Source: a virus
Lineage: Duplodnaviria; Caudoviricetes
Strand: one strand, 5' to 3'
Length of the DNA stretch: 62,857 nucleotides
IMG/VR virus record: IMGVR_UViG_3300010293_000004
Span: 1 to 62,857 of that record
Both the position numbers and the translations under genes were made by a program. The notes beneath the pieces were generated by a model that did no database searches, was not told the DNA's origin, and worked only from the letters and a program-made list of their open reading frames with translations. The stretch's first letter is position 1; the number at the start of each line of letters is the position of its first letter. This document shows, piece after piece, positions 3,852 through 62,857 of this stretch.

Positions 3852-5333
3852 TTATGTATTAAGTTTAACAACTGCTTCTACTGTACCTTCGCTTGATGAT
3901 TCTTTCGATTGTAATGCACGACCAATTACATTAAACGGAGTGATTTCATCTTTAGTTGCTGCTCTTGCTAATCCGTTACCTGCACTAACTAAACGGTCGC
4001 CTTTACGGACTATACCAATAACACGAACCGGAACACGGCCTTGAACTGCAATCGGTGGGTGGGTTTCGTTATTACCTGCACCAGCATTCATTAAGTATGC
4101 TGCATTTGTACTAACTACACCAAACACATTATCGCTCATTGCTTCTGCAACTGCGGTGATTTCCTTAGTACCGCCTAACTCAACAACTGTTCCTGGAACA
4201 TACGTAGCATCAGCTTCAAAGCGTTCTGCTAAGTCAGCGTATTGTGCTGTAACCGCAGTACCGTTGAATGTAGTAGCATACATTGTGTTAAAGCGTGTTG
4301 AAGCTGAACCAAAATTGTAAGTATTGTTAGCGCCTGGAACGAGGTTGCCAGTAATGGTGTTTGAACCATCACGTGCTAATGCTGTGCTTCCTACACCAGT
4401 AAGCTGACTGTCGACATAATGTTTAGTTGCAATACCTAGCGCAGTTGTGGGGCTCCCTACAACCGTTAATAACCCAGTAGTGCCAGCTATGCCTAATGCT
4501 TGGGTTGCTACTCCGCCAACGTTAACAAAGAATCGCAGGTCTTTTCCTAAGTCATTGCTTATTAGATTAACAGAGTTAGATCCAACATTAACAGTAAAAT
4601 TATTACTTGTGCCAACTGTTAGACCTGTGCTATTTGATATAGTTACTGGTTGCGTAAAAGTAGTTGCAACATTCGATCTTACATATTCATTCGCTGCAAA
4701 GCCGCCTAACGAAAGAGCGTTTTCTGACGCACCATAATATGCTAATGCTGGCGAAATAGTTGCTAAATTAAAGCCTGGCTTCAGAACTGTGAACCCCGGT
4801 AAACCGTTAACTTGAAATGCTACGTCTTTACTTAAAACTGCTACTAATACGTTAGCAATAAAGAACTTAACAATAACATGGCTAAGACCGTCGTTTGCTC
4901 CAGTAACAACATCCGCAACCGGTCCCGATTGCCCTTGTGTTGCAGTATAAGCTGGACCAACAACTACCCAAGTTGAGCCAGAATAAATTTTTAACTGGCC
5001 ATTTGCGGTGTCCCACCATAAATCACCGGTGATACCACTGGATGGTGCTGCTGCTGAAGACGTAGAGCTACTAACAGTTTTCCATGTTGTGCCGCTATAA
5101 ACCTTAAGTAGTTTTCCTGTGCTATCCCACCAAACTTGACCTTCAAGTGGATTAGCTGGTGAGGTTGAGCTAGAGAAATTTTCTAATAAATGAACGAAGT
5201 TCTCGTTTAGAAACTCTCCGTAACCAGCAAAGTTTTTACCAATTAAAACTAAGCTAGTATATGTAGTATCTGTTGTTCCATCAGCAACGGTAACTAAATT
5301 TTGACCGTTTGACCGAGTAATGTTATATGCCAT
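3852..5333 (-). CDS. Baseplate/tail fibre protein with C-terminal intramolecular-chaperone (peptidase G2/IMC-like) domain
   Basis: N-terminal LIGKNFAGYGEFLNENFVHLLENF; repeated G.LWWD motifs; C-terminal YADLAERFEAD...GTVV...GRVPV. Confidence 0.65.
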   Translation of the reverse strand: MAYNITRSNGQNLVTVADGTTDTTYTSLVLIGKNFAGYGEFLNENFVHLLENFSSSTSPANPLEGQVWWDSTGKLLKVYSGTTWKTVSSSTSSAAAPSSGITGDLWWDTANGQLKIYSGSTWVVVGPAYTATQGQSGPVADVVTGANDGLSHVIVKFFIANVLVAVLSKDVAFQVNGLPGFTVLKPGFNLATISPALAYYGASENALSLGGFAANEYVRSNVATTFTQPVTISNSTGLTVGTSNNFTVNVGSNSVNLISNDLGKDLRFFVNVGGVATQALGIAGTTGLLTVVGSPTTALGIATKHYVDSQLTGVGSTALARDGSNTITGNLVPGANNTYNFGSASTRFNTMYATTFNGTAVTAQYADLAERFEADATYVPGTVVELGGTKEITAVAEAMSDNVFGVVSTNAAYLMNAGAGNNETHPPIAVQGRVPVRVIGIVRKGDRLVSAGNGLARAATKDEITPFNVIGRALQSKESSSEGTVEAVVKLNT

Positions 5334-5391: not shown

Positions 5392-6003
5392 CTATTTCTG
5401 TAAGGTTAAATTAGTTAACGACTGGATTCGAATAGTGTAATCAATTTGAATCAATCGATTTAAAGATTTTTGTACTGGATGGAACACAACGTGAGTTAAT
5501 AGTTTACCGGTACCTACGCCGTCCGAAGACCACCCTTTAATGCCCAACTCATCAAACACATACGATCCGTCTAAGTTTTGGCTGTTGTCAAATGCTGCTT
5601 GTCCAGCTGGCTCACCGTAATCTAACAAACAACTAATTAGCACGTCAGAAAACACTTCCCCTGGCACATGACGTACTTCGATTTTGTTGCGAAGTATATC
5701 TTGGTTAAATGTGCTAGTGTTATCAACAATCTTAAAATAAGTAGGATTGTAAAGTTCTGCGTTCTGCGTATTTGTATTAGTAGGAAGATAGTTAATCACC
5801 CCGGTCGGGTCAACGTTTGTACCACCGTTCCCAAAATGCATCTCATATGCGTACCCTGTTCCTTTATTAGCAAAATTGTATGCTAATGCTTCTGAAATAT
5901 TTTCGTAATGAATAGCATTGTCTTTATCGACTAAAATTTCTCCCGACTCAGGATCAGATATTGTAATATGCCCAACTACACTAAACGCTGCGATTGATTT
6001 CAT
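5392..6003 (-). CDS. Conserved baseplate/tail structural protein; ends in TAG
   Basis: 203-aa ORF in the baseplate block, with FDELG...THVVFHPVQKS. Confidence 0.6.
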   Translation of the reverse strand: MKSIAAFSVVGHITISDPESGEILVDKDNAIHYENISEALAYNFANKGTGYAYEMHFGNGGTNVDPTGVINYLPTNTNTQNAELYNPTYFKIVDNTSTFNQDILRNKIEVRHVPGEVFSDVLISCLLDYGEPAGQAAFDNSQNLDGSYVFDELGIKGWSSDGVGTGKLLTHVVFHPVQKSLNRLIQIDYTIRIQSLTNLTLQK

Positions 6004-6146
6004 TATGCTCTTCCTGCAAAAAATACTTCTTCTGTTTCTGGATCAAATATCTTAACATGAGCTTGCACAAAAATGCCGGACGATTCGTCAGGTTTCTTTT
6101 CTTGTGACTTAACCTCTTCGTTATTAACTTCTTGCTTTGTTTCCAT
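6003..6146 (-). CDS. Small hypothetical protein (about 47 aa)
   Basis: The likely start ATG at 6146 lies 5 nt after TAAATA (6152-6157). Its C-terminus HVKIFDPETEEV resembles the N-terminus of the next gene (HITISDPESGEI). Confidence 0.6.
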   Translation of the reverse strand: METKQEVNNEEVKSQEKKPDESSGIFVQAHVKIFDPETEEVFFAGRA

Positions 6147-6165
6147 TATGTTATTTATCATACTT

Positions 6166-9100
6166 TTAACCTGGATCATAACTATCAAAAGGCACTTCGT
6201 CAAACATTTTTTCTGAGAATCTATCAGTTAACATATCTGGATTTACCCAAATAACGTCGTCAGATGGTAACCAAGGTACATAACTCGGGCTTGCTTTAAT
6301 AAACATAGCCTGTGGTTGAGAACTAAAATCTAAACCTTGACCGTCAACTACATAACCGATCTGTGACGGATTTAACCAGGTGTTAACATCTGGATTTTCT
6401 GGAATCCGTTGCTCAATTGATCCATCCGATACAATACTATAATATGGGTGCACTGTTGGAGCACCAGTTCCACTAACTGCACGACGAATTTGCTTTAGTA
6501 CGTTCCGTAATCGATCAATTTCGTAGTAAGTAATCTTTTCACCGTTAATAAAAACTACTCCCGGGTTCAAATTCTCTTTGCTCGGCTCTGGTAACATCGA
6601 AGTGTTAGACACTACAATTTCCGAGTCAGTAATGTGCAACGGTTCAGCAAGGTTAACAGTATGCGCCTCAGAAATACGATAATATTCTCGATTATCACTC
6701 ACATCAGGAACCATAAACACCTCAATTAATGCACCGTCCTCTGGAGCACTATTAAACAATACTTTTCCGTTAAAGAACAAGAATTCTGAATTATCTAAAA
6801 CAGTTATGTCGTTTGATGAGGTAATCTTAATAACCTCAAGTTCATTAAAGATAACATATGTATCTCTTGACCCATCGCCCACAAATCGGTATGATGTTAT
6901 ATATGTCTTAGGCATAGTGTTTTGATAAACTGAGAATTCAACAATTTCGTCATCACCTAACACATTGTCAAAAATTATTCGTCCTGGTTCAAGTCTTAAA
7001 CCGATAGTGTACTCAGTATTACCAAACGAAACATCATCCGACGTTAATACTAAGTCAAAATGCTCGCCGACATCCGGAACTGTTAAGTCAAGAGACGTAG
7101 TTGCCCACAAACCATTCTCTGTGTTTTGAACCTTCTTCTTTAGTAACCTAATACTGTAAGAGAAGCCGTTGCCATAGATTAACGGGAATTCTTGCTGTAA
7201 TCCGTCACCGGTAAATGTACACTTAGGTGTGTTTACTCTAGCCGACATACTATGGAAAATACGGTATCCCAATGTATAGTCGTGGTTTGTGAGGGTAAAC
7301 ACTCTCATCTCTAATGTGTCAAACACTATACCTGGGACTAATTCTTCAGGGGCATGACTGTGGTACTTATCAACAAAGTGGTTACCTGACAACGTCACGT
7401 CTTCTGGGCGAACACCCAATGCGCTATCTTCTAAGTTACTTCTAATAATAGTGTCGATGTTAGTGTTTACAGTATCTTGCGGATAACCAGTATCAACTCC
7501 GTCGCTGAATGGTAAGCCTAACACATTGTTTCCAGGAAACTCAATACCATAGAATAACTGTGCTAGATCTTTTCCAGGCATTCCAATTTTTGGATTATAA
7601 TATGCCATAACTCGATCGTTAGCATTAGTAAACTCAGATGGATTAATCAATCTAAACTTAGTATAGTCAAAGTATGTAGTTGGAGAAACTGCATGTTCTG
7701 CAATATATGCACCACCGTTAAACGAAACAATTGACCCAACATCATAACTAGAATTCTTATCCCAATCAGTTATTTCTGATGAGTATGTAATTCTATCAAA
7801 CTTAATAGTCGATGATATAGATCTGATTTTGTTGTTAGAAAGCATAGCATATGCTTTTCCGCCAACCCCGTTACCATTGATTATAACTTGAGGAATTGAT
7901 GTATATCCGTATCCTGGATCTTCAACAAGAATTTGTGTTATTGCCCCAGTGTAGTAATCAATGAGTGCTCGGGCTTTCGCTCCAATTCCGTTGCCGCCAA
8001 CTAAAGTCACTGTTGGTTCAATGGTATATCCAACTCCTTGATTTTGTATTACAATCTCACCAATGGTACTAGTGTAATTCTCTCTCCAAAACTTGTACTC
8101 GTCCCTCTTGATAATTTCTTCGTCCCTTGCATGTTCGAAGTTCGGGCTTCGATAAGTTTTAAGGTCTTCGTCGTAGTACGGCGGTAAATCGAAATCTGAA
8201 GTCTCAAGAACCGCATCGTCTAATGCTTCGTAGTTAAGTAAGTATTCTCTAATTTTTGTCCGATATGGCTTAACTTCATTGATGTAATCCCGATAATATT
8301 CCTGGTTATCTTTGATGTAGTTAGGAAATTCCTCTAACTTTCGTAATTTGTGAATGATCGAAATAAAGCTAGTTTTAAACAACCAGTCATTGTCTCGATT
8401 TTCTGCCAGCGAATAATTCATTAATGAGAAAAATAGTTTATTAAACTCGACCGACAAGTTCCTAACGAAAATATGATCTCGTATAGTTTCGAAAATGCAT
8501 CTAAATTCTTTCGACACATCAAGGTCAAATCTTCCGCTATCAAAGAAGTCCGAACTGAAACCAAAAGGATCTGGTGCGCCGCTAAATAAACTAGACGACA
8601 GCTCGATTGTTCCGTTTTGTAGTACTTTCAATTCCTTAGACAAGTTACTGGATATTCCATAAACCATAAACTGCCCTTGACCGTTGTTATTAACTCGTAC
8701 TAAGTCACCAGCTTTTAAGTGTAGTTTATACATGTCTTTTTCTAAGTCAACTGTATATGTTGGCATCAAAGTGACATTAAACCCTTCTTTAACCCAATCT
8801 ACAAACTTCCACATTTTAGATGTATCATAACTCTGGATCTGATCTAAGACTAACGAAGGGACAAATTCTGTGCCGTTCCATACTACTGTCACTTTATAGA
8901 TAGTCCACAAGTTGTCGAACTCGTAATCTCGTTCGACTAAAATTTTATATTCTTGTGGGGTTTCTGTGTCGAACGTGTAATTACCAAACTTATCTGCGCC
9001 GAAACCAACAAATAGCCCAGAATGTGGAAGATTGTACTTATTAATGTACTCTAATTCGTCTCGATCTGCAACTTTAAGGTTCCATACCTCGTCTCGTTCG

Positions 9101-12100
9101 CTGGGAGGTAAATCGCTTCGGTACAACCCTTGTATATTAAATTGTGCAGCAATCGGATGTTTAGAAAATACATTGTTTACAAATGTAACAAAGTTTTGTG
9201 CTGCTCGAGTCCGATCAGAAAACATCGACTGTCGAGGACGAACACTAATTCCGTATCTTTCAGATTTCTTTAAGGTAACATCAGGAACATTACGATCAGC
9301 AGTATCCTTACCTGTCAAGCTGTCGACTAACTTATTCACTAGTTTAGTTGGCAAGATAGCATTATAATTTCCTTCTTGCAATAGCTCAAACTCACTATGT
9401 GTCGGGGTTTTATTTAAATGTTCTGAGAACTCAATGTGTAAGACTGTTTTGTCACTATTTAACATGTTATTATAGTTAAATAGTCCAACCGCACTGCTGC
9501 TTAAGATTGCAGCATACGGAATTCCTTGCCCTTGTGGATTATTAATTATATCAGCAATTACTGCTACTGGATGAGATTTGTCTTTGCTTGTGTTATTCTT
9601 CTTATCTTTTACCCAGAAGTAATATTTGCTTTGTAAGCTATTTGTTACTGGATGAACATAAAACATCTCTACATAAGCAGAGTCGTCTTCGTACTTCGGA
9701 ATACCGTCAGAGCCGTGCTCGACATATTTCGACGGTAATACATCGCTTTCTACCCACTCTAATACTTCAATAGTAGAACCCGGAAAGACTCGACCCCAAT
9801 TCGCTAACCTATAAGATAGAGAACCTTGTTCGTAGTCTACGTATCTAACTAAATCTAAATTCCACCACACTTTACCAACTTGGAAGTCGCTCCAGTGATA
9901 GTCATTGAACAGAGCGAAGCTGGGATTAGTCGTTCGATTATATGCTGCCGGGTCAACTGTTGTTTTATAGTCAATATCTTGTTCAGCAATTCCAAGTATC
10001 TTTCCTTTAACTGGATCAATATAATCCAAGTAATTTAAAATAGTATTAGAATCCGAGTTATACACAAACAGTTCGTTAACATAGTTATAGTCTACTTTTG
10101 GACTTTCACTTTTAACTTTTTCCCACCCTTTAACTTTAGATAAATTAGTAAAACTATACACTCTCCCAATGTCAACACTATCCCCTTCATCGTCATACGG
10201 GGCACTAGTAACAATGTAATGACCTGCGATATCTATCGAATAACCAAATTGGTCGTATGATTTAATGTCCGGATTATATAATAACTGTACGTACCCAAAC
10301 TTGCTTGAATTTCCGTAAATATTATTTGCGTTATGCATTAACTCAAATACATATACTGACCCGCTCTTATGTGTTCTATCATAGAAATATGTAGTTCTGT
10401 TATCAAATACTGTAGTTTTATTGTCGAATACACTCTGACTTACTAAGTCAGCGTACTTGCTTTCGCACAACAGCGTTTCACTAATTGCATCATATTTCAC
10501 CGCACTGCCGAATAGTTCATTACTTCGGAATTCAGCCATTGGATACTTTATTTCTTGTAATTCAACAATAAGGTTGAACGATAGCTCATTAAATAAATTG
10601 CCAGACCCCGGAAGAATAGCCAGGACAGAATTCTTCCCAACTGAGGTGAGCGTTAAGTACCCGTTATCGTTTGTGGCAGTAACCCCTGGGATATCCGAAT
10701 AGTTAATTACATTTACAAAATCATCTAACGTTGGGGTTGGTATATAGATCCCAACATCAACCCCGTTGATAAAAATTGATCCGCCAGGTGTTAACACAGG
10801 GTCTTGTTCAACCGTAGTTATGGTATTAAACTCTGCTGCAATGTCGGCAAAATAACGCACTACTCCGCTCTTATAAGAATTTTCAGTATAATAAGGAGAT
10901 CCCACAAACATCTTTTTACCGTCTGGAGACATGTCAACTGATGTTCCGAATTGTGCATTATACACAACTTTTCTTGGTTCAAGTACTTTTATTAAAGAAA
11001 ACCCACTAGTTGTTCTGCCATAAACATATGCTGCCCCAGCATGTTCTATTGGGATATTAGTCGCAATATCAACTGCATCTTCGCCTGGGGCGCCAACAAT
11101 TAACTTAGAACCATCATAGTTCGTTTTAATGCTAACTCCATACATAGCATCTAACGACTGTACACCGTAGTTAGCTCCGTCTAACGTGCTATCGAACTTA
11201 AAGAACGATCGAATAGTTACTTTAAGTTGCACAGCCCCAGGGTCTACATTAAACTTTAGTAAATTGCCAGTGAATGTATAATGCACTCCTGGAAGGTATG
11301 TGCTAATGTCAGATGTTATAGTTGTTGATTGCTGATTAGCAATCAAGAATGGAACCGTTTCTCCACTAAACATTGGGTTTGTGTCGAAATATATAGACGA
11401 ATCATCTAAAATAAATTGCTCTTCTACTATCTCTTCTAACTTATAACTATAAACCTTGTTTACCTCAGAAGCTCCGATATACAACCATTTACTGTCGCCG
11501 CTTATGCTAACGCTATCCCCAAATTTCTCATTAGCAGGTTGTTCGATTCTTTGTGATAATACCAATGTACCAGAGGAAACTCTATTATAGATATATACTT
11601 CCCCAGCTACCGTCGAGGTCCCAGGGGCCGAAACTATAGCAAATCGATCCGACATGTCAATGCATTCACCAAAATCTTTAGTAGTAGGCAGTACCGGACT
11701 TAAGGTTTGAATTTCGTTTGCTGTTGTATTCTCAGGAGTGACTGTTCTAAAATATGTTTTGACCTCACCCTGGCCGCTATTCACTTTAGGGCGACTAACC
11801 ATCACAAATTTTGCGTCAGAAGATAACTTAATTGTGGTGCCGTACTGATCTAAGTTAACCGCGGTTGACTCGTCAACCGCGTATTGCTCAGTGCTTACCC
11901 ACGGTTCGTTCTTATTAAATACTCCCCAATTTTTGTTTGGGCTAGCTTCGTCGACCCATACCTTGTCAATGGTTTTCCAGTTATGTATCGGAGTATAATC
12001 AACAATATCGCTCATCTGTTTAAATCTGAGAGAGATCATCTTATATAAAATTGCCCTTCCAGATAATGTTTCTTTCTCTTTAAACTCAGCAAGAGCAATG

Positions 12101-31070: not shown

Positions 31071-31748
31071 ATGCCTACTACTTTTTCTCCCACTTACTTG
31101 TACATAAAACAGCACTCGATAACAAAAATGCTATATTTCGGAAAGACAACTTTGCCGCACGATGATATGCTAGAATATTTAGGATCCGGAAATAGATGGC
31201 TTAATCACATTAACAAACACGGTGTTGACAAAGTAGAAACTTTATGGTATTGTTTATTTTATGATAAAAATGACTGTGAAAATTTTGCTTTATCATTTTC
31301 AAAAAACCAAATGATTGTCGAATCTAACAACTGGGCTAACTTAATACCAGAAAACGGATTGTCTGGATTCCCAGCAGGGTTAAAATTTAAAGATTCACAT
31401 AAGAAATCTTTAAGTTCTGCTAAAAAAGGAAAGACTTGGGAGGAAATTTATGGAGAAGAAGGAGCAAAGTTAAGAAGACTGCAAAACTCTCAACCAAGAG
31501 GATCGTTAACAGAAAAACGCAAACAGAATATATCAAATGCAAAAAAAGGTATGGCGTCTCCACACGAATGGTCTATAGAACTGCGAGAAAAAGTTAGCGA
31601 GAAACTTTCTGGTATAAAAAGATCCGAAGAAACCAAACAAAAAATGAGAGAATCATCTAAGACTAAAAAAATATGTCCGTACTGTGGTTTAGAAGGTTCA
31701 GGTCCAAGTATGCAACGATGGCACTTTAATAATTGTAAATCAAAATGA
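31071..31748 (+). CDS. Homing endonuclease (GIY-YIG variant with NUMOD3-like repeats and a C-terminal CxxC ribbon)
   Basis: YLYIK...YFGKT...YLGSG; SEETKQKM; CPYCG..RWHFNNCK; TAAATA at 31040. Confidence 0.7.
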   Translation: MPTTFSPTYLYIKQHSITKMLYFGKTTLPHDDMLEYLGSGNRWLNHINKHGVDKVETLWYCLFYDKNDCENFALSFSKNQMIVESNNWANLIPENGLSGFPAGLKFKDSHKKSLSSAKKGKTWEEIYGEEGAKLRRLQNSQPRGSLTEKRKQNISNAKKGMASPHEWSIELREKVSEKLSGIKRSEETKQKMRESSKTKKICPYCGLEGSGPSMQRWHFNNCKSK

Positions 31749-33514
31749 TTAAATTTAAAAATGTAACTGCAAAAAACTTTCTATCAATTGGGAACAATAC
31801 ACAAGGAATAAATTTAGATCGTCGTGACTTAACTCTAATTCTCGGTGAAAATTTAGATCTCGGCGGAGATGATAATGGCAGCCGAAATGGAACAGGTAAA
31901 ACTGCTTTACTAAATGCCATTAGCTATGCTTTATACGGACAGGCATTATCGAGTATCCGTAAAGATAACTTAATAAACCACACAAACGGAAAAGGTATGG
32001 TGATTACCATTGAGTTTGAGAAGAATGGGCAATTGTATAAAATTGAGCGGGGACGTAAGCCAAACTTTATTACTTTTTACGTAGGTGATAAAGCCGTCGA
32101 AGCTCAAGATAGTGATTCTCAAGGTGATAGCCGCGAAACACAAGCAGAAATTGAAAAGTTGCTTGAGATGTCGCACGACATGTTTAAGCACGTTGTTGCC
32201 TTAAACACTTACACCGAACCATTTTTATCGTTAAAAGCAAACGACCAGCGTGTTATTATCGAACAACTTCTAGGTATTACCTTATTAAGTGAAAAAGCAG
32301 ATTCGTTAAAAGAACTTAACAAAGCAGTCAAGGATGAAATCACAGCCGAAGAGATTAACATTAAAGCAATCACAGATGCTAACAAGCGATTCCAGGAGCA
32401 GATCGAAGCACTTAAAAGAAGGCAAAAGCTTTGGTTAACTAAAAAAGAAGAGGATTTGCTTAATCTCAGAGATGCATACGATCTACTGTTAAACATTGAC
32501 ATCGAGTCTGAGATTAAAACACACAGTGATTTAAAAGAGTGGATTGAGAAAGACGCATACCTCACTCAACTTAAAAAGGATGCAGCTACATTAAAAGCTG
32601 CGATCGATAAGGAAATTGTTCGAGTTAACAAAATTAGCAAAGAATTAGAGAGTTTGCGAGACCATAAATGTCATAGTTGCGGGCAAGAGTTGCATGATTC
32701 TAAGCACGAAGAATTGCTTGCACGTAAAGAACACGACGAGGCAGAAATTCGCGAACATATTATTGCTTTACAAACCGAGAGGATTGCACTCGATGCAGAA
32801 ATTAGCACCATCACTTTACCTGCAAAACCAGAAACATTTTACAAGAAACTAGAAGAAGCATTAGAACACAAAAGTTCAATTGCTCATTTAAAACAACAGA
32901 TTGACTCTAAAGAAGCCGATGCTGATCCGTACGACGAGCAAATTAACGACATGACTAGTTCAGGGATTGTCGAGGTTAGCTACGATAAGATCAACGAACT
33001 TACTAAGCTAAAAGAGCATCAAGACTTCTTGTTTAAACTGTTAACTAACAAAGATTCGTTTATTCGCAAGCAAATTATTAATCAAAACTTAACATTCCTT
33101 AATAAGAGACTAAGCTACTACTTAGACAAAGTCGGTCTTCCTCATCAAGTAGTATTCCAAAACGATTTAACAGTAGAAATTAGTGAATTAGGTAGAGACT
33201 TAGACTTCGACAACTTATCTCGCGGTGAGCGCGGCCGGTTAATTTTATCTCTGTCATGGGCATTCCGTGATGTATGGGAATCATTGTACCACCCGATTAA
33301 CCTGCTGTTTATTGACGAGTTAATCGACAACGGGCTCGACACTAACGGGGTAGAAGCAGCACTTGCTACACTAAAGAAGATGGCACGTGATCATAACAAG
33401 AGTGTTTGGTTAGTATCTCACAAAGACGAACTTACTAATCGAGTAAATAACATCTTAAACGTAGTTAAAGAACACGGGTTTACAACATACAGTAACGAGA
33501 TCGAGAATGTTTAA
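31745..33514 (+). CDS. gp46: Recombination ATPase (Rad50/SbcC-like)
   Basis: NGTGKT Walker A, CHSC hook, LSRGE signature, IDE Walker B, VSH. Confidence 0.93.
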   Translation: MIKFKNVTAKNFLSIGNNTQGINLDRRDLTLILGENLDLGGDDNGSRNGTGKTALLNAISYALYGQALSSIRKDNLINHTNGKGMVITIEFEKNGQLYKIERGRKPNFITFYVGDKAVEAQDSDSQGDSRETQAEIEKLLEMSHDMFKHVVALNTYTEPFLSLKANDQRVIIEQLLGITLLSEKADSLKELNKAVKDEITAEEINIKAITDANKRFQEQIEALKRRQKLWLTKKEEDLLNLRDAYDLLLNIDIESEIKTHSDLKEWIEKDAYLTQLKKDAATLKAAIDKEIVRVNKISKELESLRDHKCHSCGQELHDSKHEELLARKEHDEAEIREHIIALQTERIALDAEISTITLPAKPETFYKKLEEALEHKSSIAHLKQQIDSKEADADPYDEQINDMTSSGIVEVSYDKINELTKLKEHQDFLFKLLTNKDSFIRKQIINQNLTFLNKRLSYYLDKVGLPHQVVFQNDLTVEISELGRDLDFDNLSRGERGRLILSLSWAFRDVWESLYHPINLLFIDELIDNGLDTNGVEAALATLKKMARDHNKSVWLVSHKDELTNRVNNILNVVKEHGFTTYSNEIENV

Positions 33515-34118
33515 TATTGTTATAACTGGTGCCAATAGTGGTATAGGAAAAGAACTAAGTAAATTACTGTCTGCACATCATAATATTATTTCTATCGCAA
33601 GAGAAGAATTAGATTTAGATAATGTTAACGATGTAGTTAACTACAACTTTCCGCATTGTGATTTTTTAATCAACTGTGCCGGACACGATATAAACGGTAA
33701 ACTCCCTTTCATTGACCATCAAGTTAAAGACATTGTTAGAATACTAAACACAAACTTATTGAGCTTAATATTGCTCACCCACAAAGCACTAGAACGAAAT
33801 ATTAATTGTAAAATAATATCAATAACTAGCACTAATAATAATCGATATTGGCCAAATGATTTAGCATACAGTTTATCAAAAAAATCAGTGCAATCTTTTT
33901 ACAGTATGCTCAAAGTAGACTATCCAGATGTAAGATTACTAGAAGTATGTGTGGGTTTAACTAGAACTAATTTTAATGCTAATCGATACAAAGAAGATAT
34001 AGGTAGATTTTGCGACTTGTATTCATCAAATAACAGTTTAACTCCACAAGAAGTTGCTAATACGATTGTTAATAATATGTTCAACGATAATATCAAAATC
34101 ATAGAGGTGTCGCCTTGA
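33507..34118 (+). CDS. Short-chain dehydrogenase/reductase
   Basis: TGANSGIG, NCAG and YSLSK motifs. Confidence 0.85.
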   Translation: MFNIVITGANSGIGKELSKLLSAHHNIISIAREELDLDNVNDVVNYNFPHCDFLINCAGHDINGKLPFIDHQVKDIVRILNTNLLSLILLTHKALERNINCKIISITSTNNNRYWPNDLAYSLSKKSVQSFYSMLKVDYPDVRLLEVCVGLTRTNFNANRYKEDIGRFCDLYSSNNSLTPQEVANTIVNNMFNDNIKIIEVSP

Positions 34119-35209
34119 TTTATCCTTGGCAACTCTATCACTGGCATTTTGAGGTAAGTGGCGTTTGCACGTTAAAATGCCCCCGATGCCCAAGGAATGA
34201 TGGTTCACCGACGCCGTGGCTTAATAAAGACTTGTCACTTGATTTTTTTAAAAAAACGTTATCTGTCGATTTACTAAAAAATCAAGTGAAGCGCATCACA
34301 ATGTGCGGAGACATAGGTGACCCAATTTATGCTAAAGAATACTTAGAAATAATCAAATACATTAAATCAGTTAATCCAAAAATTCATATTTTCACAATTA
34401 CAAACGGGTCGCACAAAAAACAAGATTGGTGGGAACGATTTGCATCAATCAGCAACGAATACGACACTATAAATTTTAGTGTCGACGGTTACAATAACGA
34501 AACAAATAATTTATATCGTATTAACAGCAATTGGGATAGTATCATGTTAGGTATGAAGACAATGGTTCAGCAAAGTAAAATTTTTGTAAATTGGGCTACT
34601 ATCGTTTTTTCATTTAACCAAGATCATCTCGATCGCATTAAACAGTTAGCTACAGATATCGGCTGTGACGGATTGCAGTTAACATATAGCACAAAATTTA
34701 ATAGCAAGTATAATGGTGCGTTCGGCGAAGTAGATTTATTAGAACCAAGACCAGAATTCATAAGCAAAACTCATCGATTCGAAAGGTATTTTCATCAGCT
34801 GTCGAGTAGAAAACCGTTAACCGACGAGTATATTCATAAAAACGAAAGAATGTACGCTAGAGTACATCAAAAACATAGCAGTGTTATCACGCCTATGTGC
34901 CTAATAGGCAATCGTGGTCTGTATGTAAGTGCAGATGGTGTGTTACATCCATGCAGTTGGGTAAGTTTTCCGTATAAGTCTTTGCACACCGACAGAAAGA
35001 TTATCAAGTATGAAGATAGTTTTCATCAAAAATATCGTCATTTGCTAAATTTGCATACTAGAACATTAGAAGAAGTACTATCTGATCCAATTTGGGATAA
35101 ATTGTTTTCAACATTCAATTGTCAGAAATCAGCTTGGGTAGAATGCGAGCAAAAATGTAGCAGTAACGTGGTTGATAGAAATTATGCCGTAGGCTGGTTA
35201 ACTAATTAA
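34115..35209 (+). CDS. Radical SAM protein with SPASM/twitch-like C-terminus
   Basis: CTLKCPRC; GDIGDP; TNG; SVDG; C...G..HPC...C..C. Confidence 0.85.
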   Translation: MIYPWQLYHWHFEVSGVCTLKCPRCPRNDGSPTPWLNKDLSLDFFKKTLSVDLLKNQVKRITMCGDIGDPIYAKEYLEIIKYIKSVNPKIHIFTITNGSHKKQDWWERFASISNEYDTINFSVDGYNNETNNLYRINSNWDSIMLGMKTMVQQSKIFVNWATIVFSFNQDHLDRIKQLATDIGCDGLQLTYSTKFNSKYNGAFGEVDLLEPRPEFISKTHRFERYFHQLSSRKPLTDEYIHKNERMYARVHQKHSSVITPMCLIGNRGLYVSADGVLHPCSWVSFPYKSLHTDRKIIKYEDSFHQKYRHLLNLHTRTLEEVLSDPIWDKLFSTFNCQKSAWVECEQKCSSNVVDRNYAVGWLTN

Positions 35210-35230
35210 ATAGTACACAAGGAGACAACT

Positions 35231-35419
35231 ATGTCAACACATGAACAAATTGTAGCAGCATACGAAGCATATATTGCAGAAAATGAAAAATTCGAAGGTA
35301 AGGGCGTTGCCGCAGCAGGCACTCGTGCTCGTGGAGCATTAGGCGATTTGGGTAAGCTTACTAAAGTTCGCAGGGCCGAGATCCAAGAGAAGAAAAACGC
35401 AGCCAAGGCAGCAAAGTAA
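35231..35419 (+). CDS. Small basic helical protein (histone H1-like Hc1 family-like)
   Basis: KFEGKGVAAAGTRARGAL...RRAEIQEKKN; TAAATA at 35207; AAGGAG RBS. Confidence 0.7.
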   Translation: MSTHEQIVAAYEAYIAENEKFEGKGVAAAGTRARGALGDLGKLTKVRRAEIQEKKNAAKAAK

Positions 35420-35422
35420 TTC

Positions 35423-35965
35423 ATGGCAGTTAACGGAAAGAGCAAAGGCTCCACTTTCGAAAGAAAGATCGCCAATCTTCTTTCCGCACGATTTAAAGAA
35501 GTAACCGGAATCAACCAAGCTTTTCGTAGAAACCCCGATTCCGGTTCATTTTTCGGTGGCTCTAATAAAAAACGAGTTGCAACCCACGATTTAGATCACG
35601 CTTTTTTTGGTGATTTAATTTGCCCTGATTCCTTTAACTTCTCAGTGGAATGTAAGCACTATAAGTCAGGGCCTACGTTCTCAGCAATTGTTAAAGGTAA
35701 AGTAGCACAGTGGGATGAGTGGCTTGCACAAGCACAGCAGGATGCATCAAATTCTAACAAGGAGATGATGCTTATTGTTAAATACAATGGAGTAGACGAA
35801 GTAGTATTTTTGTCTAATCCAATCTCAGCATTACGACTTGTATTGCCGTACCGAGAGGTATACGGATACAGACTGGACGATTTTTTAAATTTAGATAATT
35901 CAATATTTTTTAATAATATAAACTCGAACAATGTACACCAACAGGCTTCCGCAGCTCAAGGGTAA
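35423..35965 (+). CDS. PD-(D/E)xK nuclease, Holliday junction resolvase-like
   Basis: KGSTFERKIA, GDL and VECK motifs. Confidence 0.75.
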   Translation: MAVNGKSKGSTFERKIANLLSARFKEVTGINQAFRRNPDSGSFFGGSNKKRVATHDLDHAFFGDLICPDSFNFSVECKHYKSGPTFSAIVKGKVAQWDEWLAQAQQDASNSNKEMMLIVKYNGVDEVVFLSNPISALRLVLPYREVYGYRLDDFLNLDNSIFFNNINSNNVHQQASAAQG

Positions 35966-36555
35966 AGAAGCTTGTTGCATTGTTTGTTTGAACAACAATA
36001 TCCAGACACCACGTCGTAAAAATCCATAAAAATTTAGCGACACTGAAATTTTGTTTTGAAGGGGCGGCCAAACCGTCACTAGTTCGCAAGTAGGTACCAG
36101 TGCAATACCGCGTGTACGAGAAAGACCGGACACGAAGACGAAAGCAACACCTAACAAAATTCATTTGGCCTTGTTTGATCGAGGATGCTCGATCCCCATT
36201 GAGATTGCCTGAAAGATGGCTGTCGGATACTTGGGTGCCAGGGGGAAGACACTAACCTAAGGTGTTAAACGACGATGGCTCTGAGAAAAAGCAACCATCA
36301 TCAATAGCAGACAACGACTTGCTAACCTGCTATTGATCCGTCATATCGAACGATCGTACAGTAATGTACACACAAAGATCAAATAAGACAAAATCGAGGT
36401 ATTGGGAGTACAGGATGACCGCTTCCGCTATATGAAAAGCATATAGCTGCCTTAGCAAGTACGTAAGAAACACTCACAGAAGATATCTCGTATTTTGCCT
36501 GGTTTACGGGCAAAATACGACTTGCATCTACAGAAAGATATCTCTTCTTTCCCCC
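35927..36555 (+). ncRNA. Putative large structured ncRNA (family not recognised)
   Basis: No credible ORF; many local and long-range helices, with G-U pairs favouring the plus strand (see findings). Confidence 0.6.
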
Positions 36556-36656
36556 AACAAACAAATAACAAAGTAAAAGAAATTAAATTAACTTAAAGAA
36601 AAGAAGAAAAGGATCTTAGAGCGAAGCGATAAGATAGATGTGCTGAAAGCACATCT
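36556..36656. other. A-rich tract plus two GAA-triloop hairpins; candidate replication origin/priming element
   Basis: atctta-ga-GCGAAGC-ga-taagat (36613-35) and agatgtgct-gaa-agcacatct (36636-56). Confidence 0.4.
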
Positions 36657-36714
36657 CTGAAGAGATAAGATGAATGATAGTAATTGATGTAATGGATAAT
36701 AGCGACTGTGATGC

Positions 36715-36945
36715 TTAGAAGAAAGGCATGCCAGTTTTCTTTGCTATCTCGATGTTGTCTTTGATTATTTTATTGATGTTTTCGCGATCTGAGAAACACA
36801 AAAGCATAGCATCGTTATATGAGATTGATCCTCTCATAAACCAGCATAGCCGCATTGCGTCATCTTTTAGGGCTTTTATGTCTTTTTCGTACGAGTCTAA
36901 TAATTTGGCTATTTTCTCGTTACTAAGAGATAAAAGCCTTATGCG
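36715..36945 (-). CDS. -1 frameshift extension (T-like/gp51-like segment) of the upstream chaperone gene
   Basis: 76 open codons (RIRLLSLSNEK...LCWFMRGSISYNDAM...KKTGMPFF*) begin at the slippery T_TTT_TTC (36945-36951). The only ATGs are internal (first at 36855) with no clear RBS. Confidence 0.7.
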   Translation of the reverse strand, partial: RIRLLSLSNEKIAKLLDSYEKDIKALKDDAMRLCWFMRGSISYNDAMLLCFSDRENINKIIKDNIEIAKKTGMPFF

Positions 36946-37790
36946 AAAAAATTAGCGTAGTCAAATGTAAATGCTACTTTGTATTCATGATTACAATGTG
37001 GGCAAGTTACTTCGAACGGCTTAACTGCAATATCCTTTGCAAAAGACGCAACAGTTTCTTGTACCTTCTTGATTATTGACCCTTCTGCATTTTTATAAAA
37101 TTCAAGGATAAAATCTGGGTTAGTGACTACAGTTCCGTTTTCGATAATAATTTTGTCGGTACTAGTAGTCAATGATTCGTAATTTAAATTAAGAACGTTG
37201 CTTAGGTGCTGATTAAACTGGGCCGTTACTACGTCTTTGTCTGAAGCTTCGTTTGCTTCTCTAATAACTTTTAAAATCTGTTGTTCTTCGAACTCTAATT
37301 TGTTTCTTTTGTTTAAATCAAAATACTTTTGTGGCTTTAAGAAAATTTGCAACCCGTTAGTTTCGACAGGGATGTGGTATTTAGGCATAGTTAATCCTGC
37401 TTGTACTGTATGCAAGTTTATTTGATAGGAGTTTTCTTCTTTGCACTCGTTGTTTGGACATGTTGCATCGATATCCATGTGTTCGCCGTACGTAGCAATA
37501 CGAATAGCAATAATAATTTGATCAACATCAACGCTAGGCATTTCCCAGGCGTTAGCGATGCTCGGGCAGCAACTTTGGATAACATCAACTACGCCTGACC
37601 CATTCATTAGTGCATCAGGAGTCTTTAATGTGATCTCATCTTTGAGAGTCATTGGAAGTACAGGAATCTCACCAGTTACTGGTAAATTGATTGATCCTTC
37701 TGGCCAAAATTTGCCGTTACTAACTAATTTAGTGTGTATAACTGCATGACGAAAATGGCTAGCTAACGGATTCTGATTGATGTTTTCCAT
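36939..37790 (-). CDS. gp26: Baseplate hub assembly/tail chaperone gp26-like
   Basis: PMTLKDEITL, D.DQIIIAIRIATYGE, two CP..C pairs, C-terminal NFFA. Confidence 0.75.
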   Translation of the reverse strand: MENINQNPLASHFRHAVIHTKLVSNGKFWPEGSINLPVTGEIPVLPMTLKDEITLKTPDALMNGSGVVDVIQSCCPSIANAWEMPSVDVDQIIIAIRIATYGEHMDIDATCPNNECKEENSYQINLHTVQAGLTMPKYHIPVETNGLQIFLKPQKYFDLNKRNKLEFEEQQILKVIREANEASDKDVVTAQFNQHLSNVLNLNYESLTTSTDKIIIENGTVVTNPDFILEFYKNAEGSIIKKVQETVASFAKDIAVKPFEVTCPHCNHEYKVAFTFDYANFFA

Positions 37791-45058: not shown

Positions 45059-46237
45059 ATGTCACAAAAACTTTTAGAAAGCCGTTGGGGTGAGACCAAA
45101 GAGGCCCTGTTAGAAGGTTTACAAGGTTCCCGCCGTACAACAATGGGTGTTATCTTAGAAAACACCAAGAAGCACTTAGTAGAAAACGCATCAGCAGGCG
45201 CAACACAAGCTGGTAACATCGCATCATTAAACCGTGTGATTCTTCCAGTTATTCGTCGTGTTATGCCAACTGTTATTGCTAACGAAATCGTTGGTGTTCA
45301 GCCAATGACCGGTCCAGTTGCACAGATTCATACTCTCCGCGTTCGCTACGCAGACAACATGATTGATGCAAGCCCATTCGGTACAAGCACAGCAGCTGGT
45401 GACGAGGCATTAAGCCCATTCAAGATCGCTGTTGCTTACTCAGGCAACACAACAACTGGTCGTGGCGACATGACAGCAGCTCTTGAAGGTCTTCCAGGTC
45501 GTAAGATCAACGTTCAGATCTTAAAACAGGTCGTAGAAGCTAAGACCCGTAAGTTAAGCGCACGTTGGACATTCGAAGCAGCACAAGACGCACAAGCAAT
45601 GCATGGTATTGATGTTGAAGCAGAAGTTATGGCTGCTTTAGCTCAAGAAATCACTGTTGAAATCGACCAAGAAGTTCTTGGTTCATTACGTGCTTTAGCT
45701 GCAACTGAAGAAACATTCGACCAAGAAGCAGTTAGCGGTACAGCAACATTCGTTGGTGATGAGCACGCTGCATTAGCAGTTCTCGTTAACCGCGTTGCTA
45801 ACAAGATCGCAACACGTACACGTCGTGGCGCAGGTAACTGGGCTGTTGTTTCCCCAACAGTGTTAACAGTTCTCCAGTCCGCAACAACTTCTGCTTTTGC
45901 TCGCACAACAGAAGGTACATTCGAAGCACCAACAAACACCAAGTTCGTCGGTACATTAAACGGCGCAATGAAGGTTTATGTTGACAGCTACGCAAGCGAC
46001 AGCACACCAGTGTTAGTCGGTTACAAAGGTTCAAGCGAGTCAGACGCAGCAGCATTCTACTGCCCATACGTTCCATTAATGAGCAGCGGTGTTGTTCTTG
46101 ACCCAGCAACTTTCGAACCAGTAGTTGGCTTCATGACACGTTACGGATATGTCGAGCTCACTAACACTTCGTCAAGCTTAGGTAACGCAGCAGACTACTT
46201 AGGCGAGATTGCAGTTTCTGGCTTATCATTCCAGTGA
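45059..46237 (+). CDS. gp23: Major capsid protein
   Basis: GVQPMTGP, VEAKTRKLSARWT.EAAQD, FYCPYVPL and TRYG motifs. Confidence 0.97.
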   Translation: MSQKLLESRWGETKEALLEGLQGSRRTTMGVILENTKKHLVENASAGATQAGNIASLNRVILPVIRRVMPTVIANEIVGVQPMTGPVAQIHTLRVRYADNMIDASPFGTSTAAGDEALSPFKIAVAYSGNTTTGRGDMTAALEGLPGRKINVQILKQVVEAKTRKLSARWTFEAAQDAQAMHGIDVEAEVMAALAQEITVEIDQEVLGSLRALAATEETFDQEAVSGTATFVGDEHAALAVLVNRVANKIATRTRRGAGNWAVVSPTVLTVLQSATTSAFARTTEGTFEAPTNTKFVGTLNGAMKVYVDSYASDSTPVLVGYKGSSESDAAAFYCPYVPLMSSGVVLDPATFEPVVGFMTRYGYVELTNTSSSLGNAADYLGEIAVSGLSFQ

Positions 46238-47585: not shown

Positions 47586-47600
47586 TTAAGACTGCATAAA

Positions 47601-47627
47601 CAAAAACCCGCACTAGGCGGGTTTTTG
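47601..47627. terminator. Bidirectional terminator at a convergent junction
   Basis: caaaaacccgc-actag-gcgggtttttg. Confidence 0.85.
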
Positions 47628-47687
47628 CTGGGTAGTATTAACTGCATTACTTTAATGTCTTAAAGTGTTACTACTATACAGTAAAAA

Positions 47688-48068
47688 TTATTTGTTGCAA
47701 ACAGATACGGCAATCTGTTTAGCCTTTTCTTTAGCCCGGCCTTGTAACATCATCATATCGTAAGCAGTTCTTTCTAATCCTCTTAGATCCCACATTATGT
47801 AACTGTATTCCCGGTGATGTATTAAGTGGGTATTTTCGATCATTGGCCGATACTCTGTCCACGTACTACATCTCAGTTTCTCTATTACGTAGATCTTTTT
47901 CTGTAGTTTTTTAAAGTACTCTTTAGTATAACGAATTTCTCTGGTTAGTATTTTGTAAGTATGCCGCCAAGTAACCTACCACTCTTTAAACTCTTCAGGT
48001 GTGGAAAAGTTCAAAGACGTTAACATATCAACAATGTTGTTACAGTCGAACATCTTCCAAGTGCTCAT
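47688..48068 (-). CDS. 126-codon hypothetical protein with an in-frame TAG at codon 31 (read-through gene or pseudogene)
   Basis: AGGAG RBS and ATGA overlap with the upstream gene. MSTWKMF...EEFKEW*VTWRHTYK...VSVCNK. TAG at 47976-47978, then 95 open codons. Confidence 0.7.
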
Positions 48069-48340
48069 TTAAACTCTCCTTTAATTAAATCAAACAGTGT
48101 GATTTTAGTTAGTTCACACCAAACATCTTCGTATACTACACAACAATCACATTCCTCATATTCATCGCCCGACCCACCCTCCATACAACACGGGCACATA
48201 GCTCGCAATAACTCGTATTGCGTTTCGTCAGTTGATGTAAACAAATACATCTTACCTTTATACTTGCACAACCCTTTCCACGTAATGTCGTAATGGTTAA
48301 TCCTCTTAGTTATTTGTATATTCTCATACCTTACTCTCAT
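48065..48340 (-). CDS. Small Cys-rich hypothetical protein
   Basis: 91 aa; AGGA RBS; CPCC and CDCC clusters. Confidence 0.7.
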   Translation of the reverse strand: MRVRYENIQITKRINHYDITWKGLCKYKGKMYLFTSTDETQYELLRAMCPCCMEGGSGDEYEECDCCVVYEDVWCELTKITLFDLIKGEFK

Positions 48341-49337: not shown

Positions 49338-49356
49338 GATTTCTCCTAATTGTAAC

Positions 49357-49425
49357 GGCTCACAGAGTAAGAGCCCAAATTTAACTCTGTTTAGTTTGTG
49401 CTGACTACCAGCACAAAATTATTTA
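49357..49425 (-). promoter_or_regulatory. Late promoter plus structured 5' leader
   Basis: TAAATA at 49420-25; a 9-bp hairpin at 49395-49417; interleaved acagagt/actctgt and ggctc/gagcc helices. Confidence 0.55.
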
Positions 49426-49435
49426 CCTATGTTCT

Positions 49436-49601
49436 TGAACGGTGATAGATTCTCAGGCCTACCACCTTCGACTTGTTCCTAGCCGGGTAGTGTTAACTAA
49501 CGGGGATACCATGCCCCGGGTGTTTTGTTGTTAACGAGAATCACCATTCACGGCACTTTGATTAGCGTCCCAATGCAAGGACGGAGAACCTTTCCCTTGC
49601 C
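49436..49601 (-). ncRNA. Putative small structured RNA downstream of the tRNA
   Basis: Three-way junction closed by UGAAUGGU-GAUUCUC/GAGAAUC..ACCGUUCA, plus a 5' hairpin module. Confidence 0.4.
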
Positions 49602-49701
49602 TCTATTAAAATAAGTCGATAAAGGAAAAACTTAGCAAGAGCTTGCAAGTTTAACAAGAGGCTAATTGTAACCAAATAGTAGTAAAAAGTTTTCATAATT
49701 C

Positions 49702-49775
49702 TGGTGCTCCTAGTCTGATTCGAACAGACGAACATCTTTTTAGAGAAGACTACTTTTCCGCTAAGTTATAGGAGC
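49702..49775 (-). tRNA. Amber suppressor-type tRNA, anticodon CUA, CCA encoded
   Basis: Acceptor stem GCTCCTA/TAGGAGC-A-CCA; D arm ACTT-AGCGGAA-AAGT; anticodon arm GTCTT-CT CTA AA-AAGAT; T arm GTCTG-TTCGAAT-CAGAC. Confidence 0.93.
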
Positions 49776-49784
49776 AATATACTA

Positions 49785-49813
49785 ACTGTAGCATCAAAAT
49801 TTAACTTTAACAA
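49785..49813 (-). promoter_or_regulatory. Sigma70-type promoter for the tRNA
   Basis: TTGTTA-17 nt-TACAGT with a TG extended -10, ending 9 nt before the tRNA 5' end. Confidence 0.55.
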
Positions 49814-49901
49814 GAAAAACGGTAAATATTATTGTTCATTTGAACTTATGCAATCCTTGCGTAAAGACATAGAACGTCATAATTCTAAAAAGGAGACAAT
49901 T

Positions 49902-62234: not shown

Positions 62235-62244
62235 ATAGCAGTAC

Positions 62245-62280
62245 AGAGTTAGTAGGGGGCCACCCTACTAACTCTCTTTT
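62245..62280 (+). terminator. Terminator-like hairpin
   Basis: 13-bp perfect stem agagttagtaggg/ccctactaactct followed by ctttt; TAAATA at 62232 lies just upstream. Confidence 0.7.
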
Positions 62281-62299
62281 ACCTTAGGGAGAATGAACT

Positions 62300-62857
62300 A
62301 TGGCAAATGAATATTTCGTAGTAAAAAATGGACTGGAAGTAGGTTCAGTAACAATTGATGCAACAACTGGTAATGTTAGTGTTCCGTCAGGAAGTCAAAT
62401 TGCAATTGGATCGGTTGTTATTTCTGGCGACCCAGTAGTACCAGCAAGTTTTGGTAATGTAGAAGTCACAGGTACAGGTTCGTTTACTGATGTTACAGTT
62501 TCTGGTAACTTAACAGTTAGTGGTACATCTACAACAGTTAATACAGCAACTTTAGATGTTGCAGACATTAACATCACTGTGGCTAAAAATGCTACAAACG
62601 CAGCTCAAGCAAACGGTGCTGGTCTTACAGCAGCAGGTGCAAACGCAACAATTACATATTCTGATTCAGATGATCGTTGGAATATGAACAAGGCATTAAT
62701 CGTTGCAACTGTATACGGTAACTTAACTGGCAACGTAACTGGCAACGTAACTGGCACAGCAGGTTCGTTGGCAACAACTCGTTACATCACATTATCTGGT
62801 GATGCAACAGGTAACGTTGGATTTAATGGTTCTGCTAACGTTGATATGACTGTTACA
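62300..62857 (+). CDS. Fibre-like protein, runs off window edge
   Basis: Not in the ORF track. GGGAG RBS; MANEYFVVKNGL...; shares the D.N.T.AK.ATNAAQANGAGLT.AGA module with the 1680-aa gene. Confidence 0.8.
   Translation, partial: MANEYFVVKNGLEVGSVTIDATTGNVSVPSGSQIAIGSVVISGDPVVPASFGNVEVTGTGSFTDVTVSGNLTVSGTSTTVNTATLDVADINITVAKNATNAAQANGAGLTAAGANATITYSDSDDRWNMNKALIVATVYGNLTGNVTGNVTGTAGSLATTRYITLSGDATGNVGFNGSANVDMTVT

Follow-up and report, generated by a model that had tools for sequence, protein, structure and literature searches.

The window analysed here, the whole of IMG/VR virus record IMGVR_UViG_3300010293_000004 (62,857 bases; Caudoviricetes), contains on its plus strand, at ~36129/36165 to 36663, what comparison with related sequences identifies as the gene of a stand-alone structured non-coding RNA (ncRNA) of about 500 nucleotides (nt), which belongs to an unnamed family. 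That this is a real conserved structured RNA family is close to certain. Conservation spans ~36129-36663 of the window, the helices covary in syntenic relatives well beyond shuffled and slid controls, and members were seen at more than 130 loci, as a minimum, in jumbo phages from freshwater and other environments. Within the conserved core, two 7-nt segments, X1 and X2, differ between relatives and remain identical to each other, i.e., they covary by identity and not by complementarity, a signal to which standard covariation tools are blind.

Extent and non-coding nature of the element

A sequence-only reading of the window had proposed an ncRNA at 35927-36555 and described this region as the largest stretch free of open reading frames (ORFs). 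The description is correct if ORFs of at least 80 amino acids (aa; 36165-36938) or at least 100 aa (35966-36938) are counted, but not at a cut-off of 60 aa, where short chance ORFs break the stretch up. No frame is open over 35900-36720. Stops of each of the three kinds occur in every frame, so that reassigning any one of them would open none, and coding as well as recoding was rejected. Likewise, 55 distinct homologue sequences show no consistent open frame. Two other ORF-free stretches of the window, 47586-48292 (479-707 nt) and 62235-62857 (623 nt), gave no Rfam match.

The proposed stretch folds better than shuffled sequence, with z = -4.72 on the plus strand (20 shuffles, none as good) and z = -2.79 on the minus strand. 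This signal sits wholly in 36165-36665 (z = -4.91; 0 of 100 shuffles as good), and 35966-36164 folds at chance (z = -0.05; 85 of 200 shuffles as good). The borders first drawn had to be moved accordingly, as they start ~200-240 nt too early and end ~105 nt too soon, missing an A-rich linker and two conserved 3' hairpins (36613-36656). The stretch 35966-36128, which contains the 3' arm of a hairpin at 35939-77, need not belong to the RNA; in L068, a relative that also bears a PDDEXK nuclease gene, the RNA begins a few bases past the stop codon.

When the window was searched with cmscan, none of 4227 Rfam families reached its threshold and nothing credible appeared at E values up to 10. ROOL, GOLLD, OLE, HEARO, raiA, and the other large Rfam RNAs gave no match, and the weak rows were confined to MicF (25.6 vs. 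79 bits) and two microRNA models. The failure of the sequence-only reading to recognise a group I or II intron, RNase P or tmRNA was borne out by Rfam and ARAGORN, neither of which gave a match, and by flanking genes that are complete and convergent. Its proposal of a large phage ncRNA in the size class of ROOL or GOLLD, or of a new family, is supported, the element being conserved, non-coding, covarying and without Rfam match.

Covariation and the pseudoknot

The core of the RNA is described by model R1, which combines the helices H1, H2/H2b, H3, and H5 (Table 1). R1 matches 74 of 85 loci as well as the window (91.5 bits, E 3.5e-17), the latter partly by construction, as the window is 1 of 16 seed rows; a further weak R1 row at 46164 is attributable to chance. 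Core pairs are formed in 87.9% of cells vs. 44-53% with slid partners, and 23 of 31 pairs have changes on both sides; none of 500 shuffles attains these values. G-U pairs are frequent (e.g., 29 of 43 at one pair) and would be A-C on the other strand, thus the plus strand is the folded one. In H5, 12 of 14 model pairs are changed on both sides, and again the G-U pairs fit the plus strand alone. The 3' hairpins H6 and H7 form model R2, which matches 75 loci in addition to the window, itself a seed row and therefore matched partly by construction. Pairing in this tail amounts to 84% vs. 30-48% in controls, with all 15 pairs changed on both sides. Owing to variation in its length and in a bulged A, the lower stem of H6 is paired in only 62% of cells.

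Moreover, a pseudoknot ties domain B to domain C, with the apical loop of hairpin B3 pairing with the segment right after H1. At least 7 base pairs (bp) are found in 97 of 113 sequences vs. 9-10% in cross-pair and shuffle controls (narrow windows), and 41 distinct complementary pairs occur. The window's own pairing, read from its sequence, joins CUUGCUAA (36318-25) and UUAGCAAG (36452-59) by 8 bp; a count at fixed offset misses it because of the 50-nt insertion that the window carries between these domains. The block of this insertion (columns ~111-150 of alignment A8) is spanned by the window alone among 25 rows, three others reaching a few columns into it.

The seven local helices listed in the sequence-only reading are all present within a base or two, but two are confined to the window, namely the hairpin 35939-77, in overlap with the upstream gene's stop codon, and the hairpin gtaca-GTAA-tgtac (36356-69), part of the insertion missing from relatives. 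The remainder are supported in relatives, i.e., 36177-94 (2 of 7 pairs with double changes), gatgg/ccatc and 36300-37 by the covariation of domain B, and 36427-47 and 36488-36520 by that of the core. The long-range helices fared differently. Those from 35999 and 36047 have their 5' partners in the non-conserved stretch that folds at chance, and the supposed partner "tgtcgga" pairs locally in relatives (by eye). The helix gggggaag/tttccccc, which would close domains B and C, is present in the window's minimum-energy fold; as a feature of the family it is not supported, since complementarity across 113 relatives is no higher than in controls (mean 5.87 vs. 5.86 and 5.66). The two large domains that these helices were thought to set are therefore not retained, and the real long-range contact is the pseudoknot, which had been missed.

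Two segments that change in concert

The 7 nt that follow an invariant CUC recur after an invariant UCU 48-59 nt further on, so that X1 and X2 flank H5. In the window, the two copies are 6/7 identical and 54 nt apart, and one indel extends the match to 14-15 nt (…GAUAUCUC). A match of at least 6 nt occurs in 96 of 101 distinct sequences, in 65 over exactly 7 and in 27 over 8; most of the misses are anchor or window artefacts of the script, with L150, L101, and L040 matching by eye. Likewise, X1 equals X2 in all seven columns in 41 of 44 alignment rows, and the matching columns of both segments are among the top pairs by mutual information. More than 16 alleles were found, including RGAURAW in nearly all eight combinations, GCAUAAU, GAAUGAU, AUAGCAG, ACGAAAU, AACGAAA, AAAGAAU, CGUCGAAU, and the window's ACAGAA(G/A). 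As the three variable positions assort freely, relatedness does not explain the concerted change. Fourteen sequence pairs are at least 90% identical outside X; five of them differ in X, each time (5/5) with the same change in both copies. X changes faster than its surroundings, and it always begins with a purine after CUC.

The complement of X1 (8 nt without the first base; 11 in the window) is absent from the RNA in 22 of 23 sequences, the remaining one being a G-U-rich chance match, and 6-mer complements of X within the RNA show no positional peak above control. Any pairing partner of X must therefore act in trans. In the window, no copy of X beyond the two stands above chance (up to 3 mismatches). 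A conserved mini-ORF or translational hop is suggested by the commonest alleles, which read NNA-URA (a sense and a stop codon), but was rejected because the frame of the upstream AUG/GUG is inconstant and other alleles are stopless (by eye). A helix between AUCU and bases 1-4 of X cannot form in the window, L040 or L013.

An exchangeable 5' domain

The relatives divide into classes by their 5' domain. The full class, which includes the window, has domain A, and the medium class has a different conserved 5' domain. Members of the short class feature a full-length match to Rfam family RF01718 on the same strand, ~85-110 nt 5' of the core. This match was obtained in 17 of 17 short-class loci and in 3 of 14 loci of mixed classes; when 130 distinct sequences were sorted crudely, 18 had domain A, 23 were medium, 31 had the RF01718 motif, and 58 stayed unsorted. 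In the window, RF01718 stays below its gathering score of 37 bits, with no row at E up to 10 in 35700-36950.

RF01718 is the Polynucleobacter-1 motif (Weinberg et al., 2010), named in the literature searched by that paper alone. A table there rates it as likely cis-regulatory and assigns it to Burkholderiales and to fresh water/estuary (PMC2864571). The habitat given there fits the freshwater metagenome run containing the window. The Rfam model covers 141 nt only, and the paper's table holds no 3' body, pseudoknot or repeats (PMC2864571). Owing to the upstream matches in short-class loci, the 141-nt motif is to be regarded as the 5' domain of a larger RNA, and domain A takes its place in the window. 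RF01718 was not found in 2 genomes or in another 151 from one Burkholderiales family, a result of little weight as the control matched nowhere either. The RNA of the window belongs to no Rfam family; it represents a new one, of which one sister subclass contains Polynucleobacter-1 as a domain.

Distribution among uncultured jumbo phages

For the comparison, 80 loci were drawn from 514 confirmed IMG/VR relatives via a baseplate-protein alignment. Searched with nhmmer, the window stretch alone gave 45 hit rows (best L079, E 1e-21), and after three rounds homologues were found in 75 of 84 related viral loci, every match lying on the strand opposite the baseplate gene, just past a small ORF. A 20-base core pattern located at least 120 further IMG/VR stretches; of the 80 listed viral loci, 58 match R1 over its full length, and among the matches listed for cellular genomes 0 of 80 fit R1. 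In each of four large contigs the pattern occurs once. The genomes with this RNA, a single copy in each, are those of uncultured jumbo phages whose kinship to the Rak2/121Q type is distant; phages of that type are the closest cultured ones by baseplate protein (only 31% identity; 94 records, all below 60%). A DNA search of GenBank phages matched neither the window's element nor two relatives.

Some loci resemble the family in part. The closest PDDEXK-bearing relative, L001, has an ORF-poor stretch of similar length (4505-5195), which does not align and folds at chance (z = -0.38). Only its tail matches R2, for which L001 was a seed row, and by appearance only the 3' hairpins (UGAGCGAUAGCGAA loop) and a few core-like pieces recall the family; the stretch is either a very diverged member or one with a replaced body. 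L004 has a 1.27-kb ORF-free stretch (5816-7082, minus strand) beside a full-length SegE/NUMOD3 endonuclease gene, with one hairpin-A1-plus-CCCNUUGAGAUUGC motif and a second similar motif ~400 nt downstream. Hairpin A1 is common to L004 and L157; L004 shares with the family only this hairpin and the following motif and has no core or tail match. In L150, tandem direct repeats of ~45-60 nt (…cattgttcgcattaggcgatctaggcaca…) lie directly upstream of its RNA (~9860-9990).

Proposed function and rival explanations

With a probability of about 0.4, the RNA is read here as a trans-acting scaffold with two identical seeds for a single partner nucleic acid. Its folded body would display X1 and X2 as single-stranded seeds of identical sequence, and their base-pairing in trans would engage two copies of that partner or two of its strands. 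Because both seeds would pair with a common partner, X would be a fast-evolving specificity determinant. This reading is favoured because segments that must be identical most simply read one partner, and because of the purine start, the putative YUNR-like turn, and the fast change of X. A YUNR-like turn, which the purine after CUC would give, is the kind of motif that presents antisense loops.

Several points weigh against a bivalent scaffold. No RNA-sequencing run containing the stretch was found, seven nucleotides is short for specific pairing, and a dimeric protein or a polymerase that copies or jumps could likewise make use of the identity of X1 and X2. A hairpin containing X1 is weakly supported (at least 5 bp in 67% vs. 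38-45% in controls), and one containing X2 is not (40% vs. 39-41%). No partner of X was found, and four large relatives show no enrichment of X or of its complement. When flanks and aligned sites of six contigs were compared, only the RNA's own sites switched with the allele, a test too weak to count against a partner because each pair of these diverged genomes could be aligned over only 15-45 kb, at ~70% identity.

Some rivals explain the identity of X1 and X2 directly. If the RNA were an architectural particle (RNA-only or RNA-protein) like ROOL, GOLLD, and OLE, its fold would be the function, e.g., as homo-oligomer or protein scaffold, and a symmetric protein or adjacent subunits would make equivalent contacts at X1 and X2. 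The length of ~500 nt, the carriage by phages, the many helices, and the long-range pseudoknot fit this picture, and ornate phage-associated RNAs are reported to form homo-oligomers (PMC12286853). Besides, UCU together with X2 forms a near-palindrome, AUCURGAU, in many members (by eye), which could pair between molecules. Such a particle is nevertheless unlikely, since identical non-palindromic segments cannot pair mutually, the palindrome is missing in the window's anchor context, L040, and L013, and a protein site is not expected to tolerate more than 16 alleles and yet demand matching copies. Copy-choice would be the simplest reason for two short segments being identical whatever their sequence. 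The RNA could hence be a template or primer for a polymerase, with the nascent strand re-annealing at the other repeat, resulting in template jumping or rolling-circle copying of a 48-59-nt unit; alternatively, its purine-rich tail could prime replication by way of a lasting RNA-DNA hybrid, as in ColE1 RNA II. The repeats, whose spacing is near-constant, lie at the foot of a stable hairpin, the locus lies beside Mre11/Rad50-type recombination genes, and a purine-rich tract precedes H6. What makes this quite unlikely is that reverse transcriptase domain RVT_1 (PF00078) was found in none of five records, one of them 99% complete (the control matched 3 of 14 genomes), that no relative contains tandem multi-unit arrays, and that L157 and L110 have the RNA away from replication genes. 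Identical copies around H5 might also be a DNA-level relic, i.e., H5 as an inserted element with its target-site duplication, or a homing-endonuclease target or origin iterons. Direct repeats around an inverted repeat near homing-endonuclease-like genes do resemble mobile cassettes, of which T4 gene 60/mobA is an example. Still, a single old insertion would let the copies drift, and here they stay identical through many allele changes; H5 is present in all members examined, none being seen with a single X and no H5, and it is kept by G-U-containing compensatory pairs that fit one strand only, all of which makes a relic highly improbable.

Other rivals start from the neighbouring genes. In most loci, only a few bases separate the stop codon of a small co-oriented nuclease gene from the start of the RNA, which might thus be the partner of this nuclease, with the X segments guiding it to a repeated or palindromic DNA site. 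The 142-aa SegE-type protein amounts to little else than its catalytic domain of 123 positions (residues 3-129), without a DNA-binding domain, whereas the L004 homologue has a NUMOD3 tail. Yet two unrelated folds, GIY-YIG and PDDEXK, occupy the slot, a pattern that fits free-standing homing endonucleases settling beside a conserved gene, and L157, L110, and L122 carry the RNA with neither nuclease nearby, so that a partnership appears decidedly unlikely. Its most far-reaching form is very doubtful: X1 and X2 would be programmable guides, and the RNA would recruit the upstream nuclease (SegE-type GIY-YIG or PDDEXK) and direct a symmetric pair of it at a site, repeated or palindromic, in the DNA of the host or of competing phages, which would amount to a new type of RNA-guided homing or exclusion. 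A cis-acting element, either a 3' untranslated region that stabilises or regulates the nuclease mRNA or an insulator or terminator between convergent early and late units, would agree with the position between convergent genes, with the sequences UCUU(U/A)AA after H6/H7 and, on the other strand, CUUUUUC after the H6 complement, and with the separate bidirectional terminator that adjoins the RNA in several relatives. However, 500 nt with a pseudoknot, conserved loops, and concerted repeats far exceed the needs of a terminator, the RNA lies among co-directional genes in L157 and L110, and a terminator scan finds none in 36000-36700; a role only in cis is very unlikely.

Features and gene neighbourhood

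The order of genes around the RNA is near-constant: a Rad50-like gene and a small co-oriented nuclease gene precede it, and a small ORF and the baseplate hub gene converge on it from the minus strand. The locus adjoins Mre11/Rad50-type recombination genes. The window shows this order, from which L110, L122, L140, and L157 depart by having the RNA elsewhere; in L157 and L110, it stands amid co-directional genes (GP88, SHMT, Tad3, exoribonuclease). Because these four carry it at other places, the RNA is considered an autonomous unit. According to the synteny tables, the upstream slot is taken in most relatives by the 142-aa SegE-type GIY-YIG gene and in some by PDDEXK_15. The dehydrogenase, radical SAM, and Hc1 genes (33507-35419), inserted in the window between the Rad50-like and nuclease genes, are missing from most relatives.

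Table 1. Features of the RNA and of its surroundings in the window
Feature	Position	Strand	Evidence or remark
Rad50/SbcC-like ATPase	31745-33514	+	
Short-chain dehydrogenase	33507-34118	+	
Radical SAM protein	34115-35209	+	
Hc1 histone-like protein, 62 aa	35231-35419	+	
PDDEXK_15 endonuclease, 180 aa, upstream of RNA	35423-35965	+	Pfam PF24608, E 1.6e-25
Lineage-specific stretch between gene and RNA	35966-36128	+	No homologue in any locus; fold z -0.05
Conserved leader GACACGAAGAC...	36129-36164	+	Like GACACCAAGUCUAACGCAG in L009, L042, L007 (by eye)
Domain A, 5' domain of full class	36165-36265	+	Hairpins A1, A2, A3
Hairpin A1	36177-94	+	7 pairs, 2 with both-side changes in 12 sequences
Conserved CCCAUUGAG in domain A; hairpin A2	36203-24 (A2)	+	A2 covariation by eye
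Hairpin A3, ACAC-UAACCUAAG-GUGU	36249-65	+	Covariation by eye
Domain B	36274-36337	+	RNAalifold, 14 medium-class relatives: 23 pairs, 15 compensatory
Hairpin B2, GAUGG/CCAUC, purine-rich loop	36274-99	+	
Hairpin B3, apical loop with CUUGCUAA (36318-25), pseudoknot 5' strand	36300-10/36327-37	+	
Window-specific insertion between domains B and C, with hairpin gtaca-GTAA-tgtac (36356-69)	36344-36393	+	
Start of domain C core	36396-36459	+	R1 match 36386-36540, pair counts, pseudoknot statistics
H1, GAGG/CCUU	36396-99/36450-53	+	
H2 with UAC bulge, and H2b	36404-26	+	
H3	36427-47	+	
Segment J, UUAGCAAG, pseudoknot 3' strand	36452-59	+	
CUC anchor and X1 (ACAGAAG, 36476-82)	36473-36482	+	
Hairpin H5, 13 pairs, most conserved long hairpin, between X1 and X2	36488-36520	+	
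UCU anchor and X2 (ACAGAAA, 36530-36)	36527-36536	+	
A-rich, purine-rich single-stranded linker, variable length, ends in GAAGAAAAGG	36555-36612	+	Alignment view
3' tail, H6 and H7	36613-36656	+	R2 match 36606-36663, 45.9 bits
H6, tandem G-A/A-G pairs, two covarying Watson-Crick pairs, GAA (GNRA-like) loop	36613-35	+	
H7, directly after H6	36636-56	+	
Conserved 73-aa ORF, convergent, downstream of RNA	36715-36936	-	No family match; kept in synteny
T4_baseplate hub protein, convergent	36939-37790	-	Pfam PF12322

The record is rated 18% complete, for which reason a full phage genome of ~350 kb is expected. Upstream of the RNA, a sigma-70-like match (TTTAGA-16 nt-AATAAT, 9/12) at 35890-35917 on the plus strand ends ~10 nt before 35927; such matches occur in this region at chance frequency (9 found vs. 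8.2 expected). Elsewhere in the window, in the ORF-free stretch 49338-49847, ARAGORN predicts a tRNA on the minus strand (49702-49775) with the anticodon CUA, labelled Pyl, which as such would suppress amber codons. Among 38 ORFs of at least 150 aa, TAG is the stop of only 4 (TAA 25, TGA 9), and TAG read-through or recoding in part of the phage is possible.

Significance

Few large structured ncRNAs without an assigned function are known, and every one of them has led to new RNA biology. The pseudoknotted architecture of the present family is well supported and suits structure work. A motif orphaned in Rfam since 2010, Polynucleobacter-1, appears as one interchangeable 5' module of an RNA of ~500 nt. 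Moreover, the pattern of X points to a specificity determinant under diversifying selection and, if a partner is found, the RNA could be a device for phage-phage or phage-host recognition.

Comparison with known systems

In the literature on ROOL, GOLLD, and structured RNAs of phages or jumbo phages, no description of this RNA was found, though fragments of it may be listed in the supplements of PMC10690425 and PMC2864571. Neither baseplate nor jumbo nor Polynucleobacter is mentioned in the main text of PMC10690425, and a search of the preprint 10.64898/2026.10.21.760802 by term found no mention either. ROOL, GOLLD, and OLE, the large "ornate" RNAs (cf. PMC12286853, PMC5737381), resemble the window RNA in their size of ~500 nt, many helices, long-range tertiary pairing, occurrence in phages, and unknown function. 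They differ in that no covariance model of theirs matches and in the swappable 5' domain and the concerted 7-nt repeats of the window RNA. Omega and bridge RNAs, the guides of mobile-element nucleases and recombinases, are marked by an adjacent TnpB, IscB, IsrB or IS110-type gene, of which none is found among the neighbours here (PDDEXK_15, SegE_GIY-YIG, Hc1, radical SAM, baseplate hub). ROOL and GOLLD genes often neighbour tRNA genes, whereas the single tRNA that ARAGORN finds in the window lies 13 kb away.

Parallels to the paired segments come from two other systems. RNA I and RNA II, the antisense/primer pair of ColE1-type plasmids, include a structured RNA of ~550 nt beside replication functions; loops of ~7 nt determine specificity there and evolve fast, a change of one base being enough for a new specificity. 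The ColE1 loops, however, are complementary between two RNAs, whereas X is identical within one RNA. In the DRT2 ncRNA, template jumping takes place between short identical motifs that bound the template region. Its repeats measure 3 nt in contrast to 7 nt here, and the reverse transcriptase gene that marks genomes with retrons or DRT2 was not found in five related records (PF00078, 0/5).

The 121Q/Rak2-like jumbo phages share the gene order of the window (SbcD, SbcC, ..., small ORF, baseplate hub). At the corresponding place, between genes 595 and 594 of Escherichia phage 121Q (L087), lies an unannotated gap of 836 nt (6038-6873). No match to the profile hidden Markov model, R1 or R2 was obtained in this gap; by eye, it features a hairpin with tandem G-A pairs that resembles H6, and the gap may be where a cultured phage encodes an analogous RNA.

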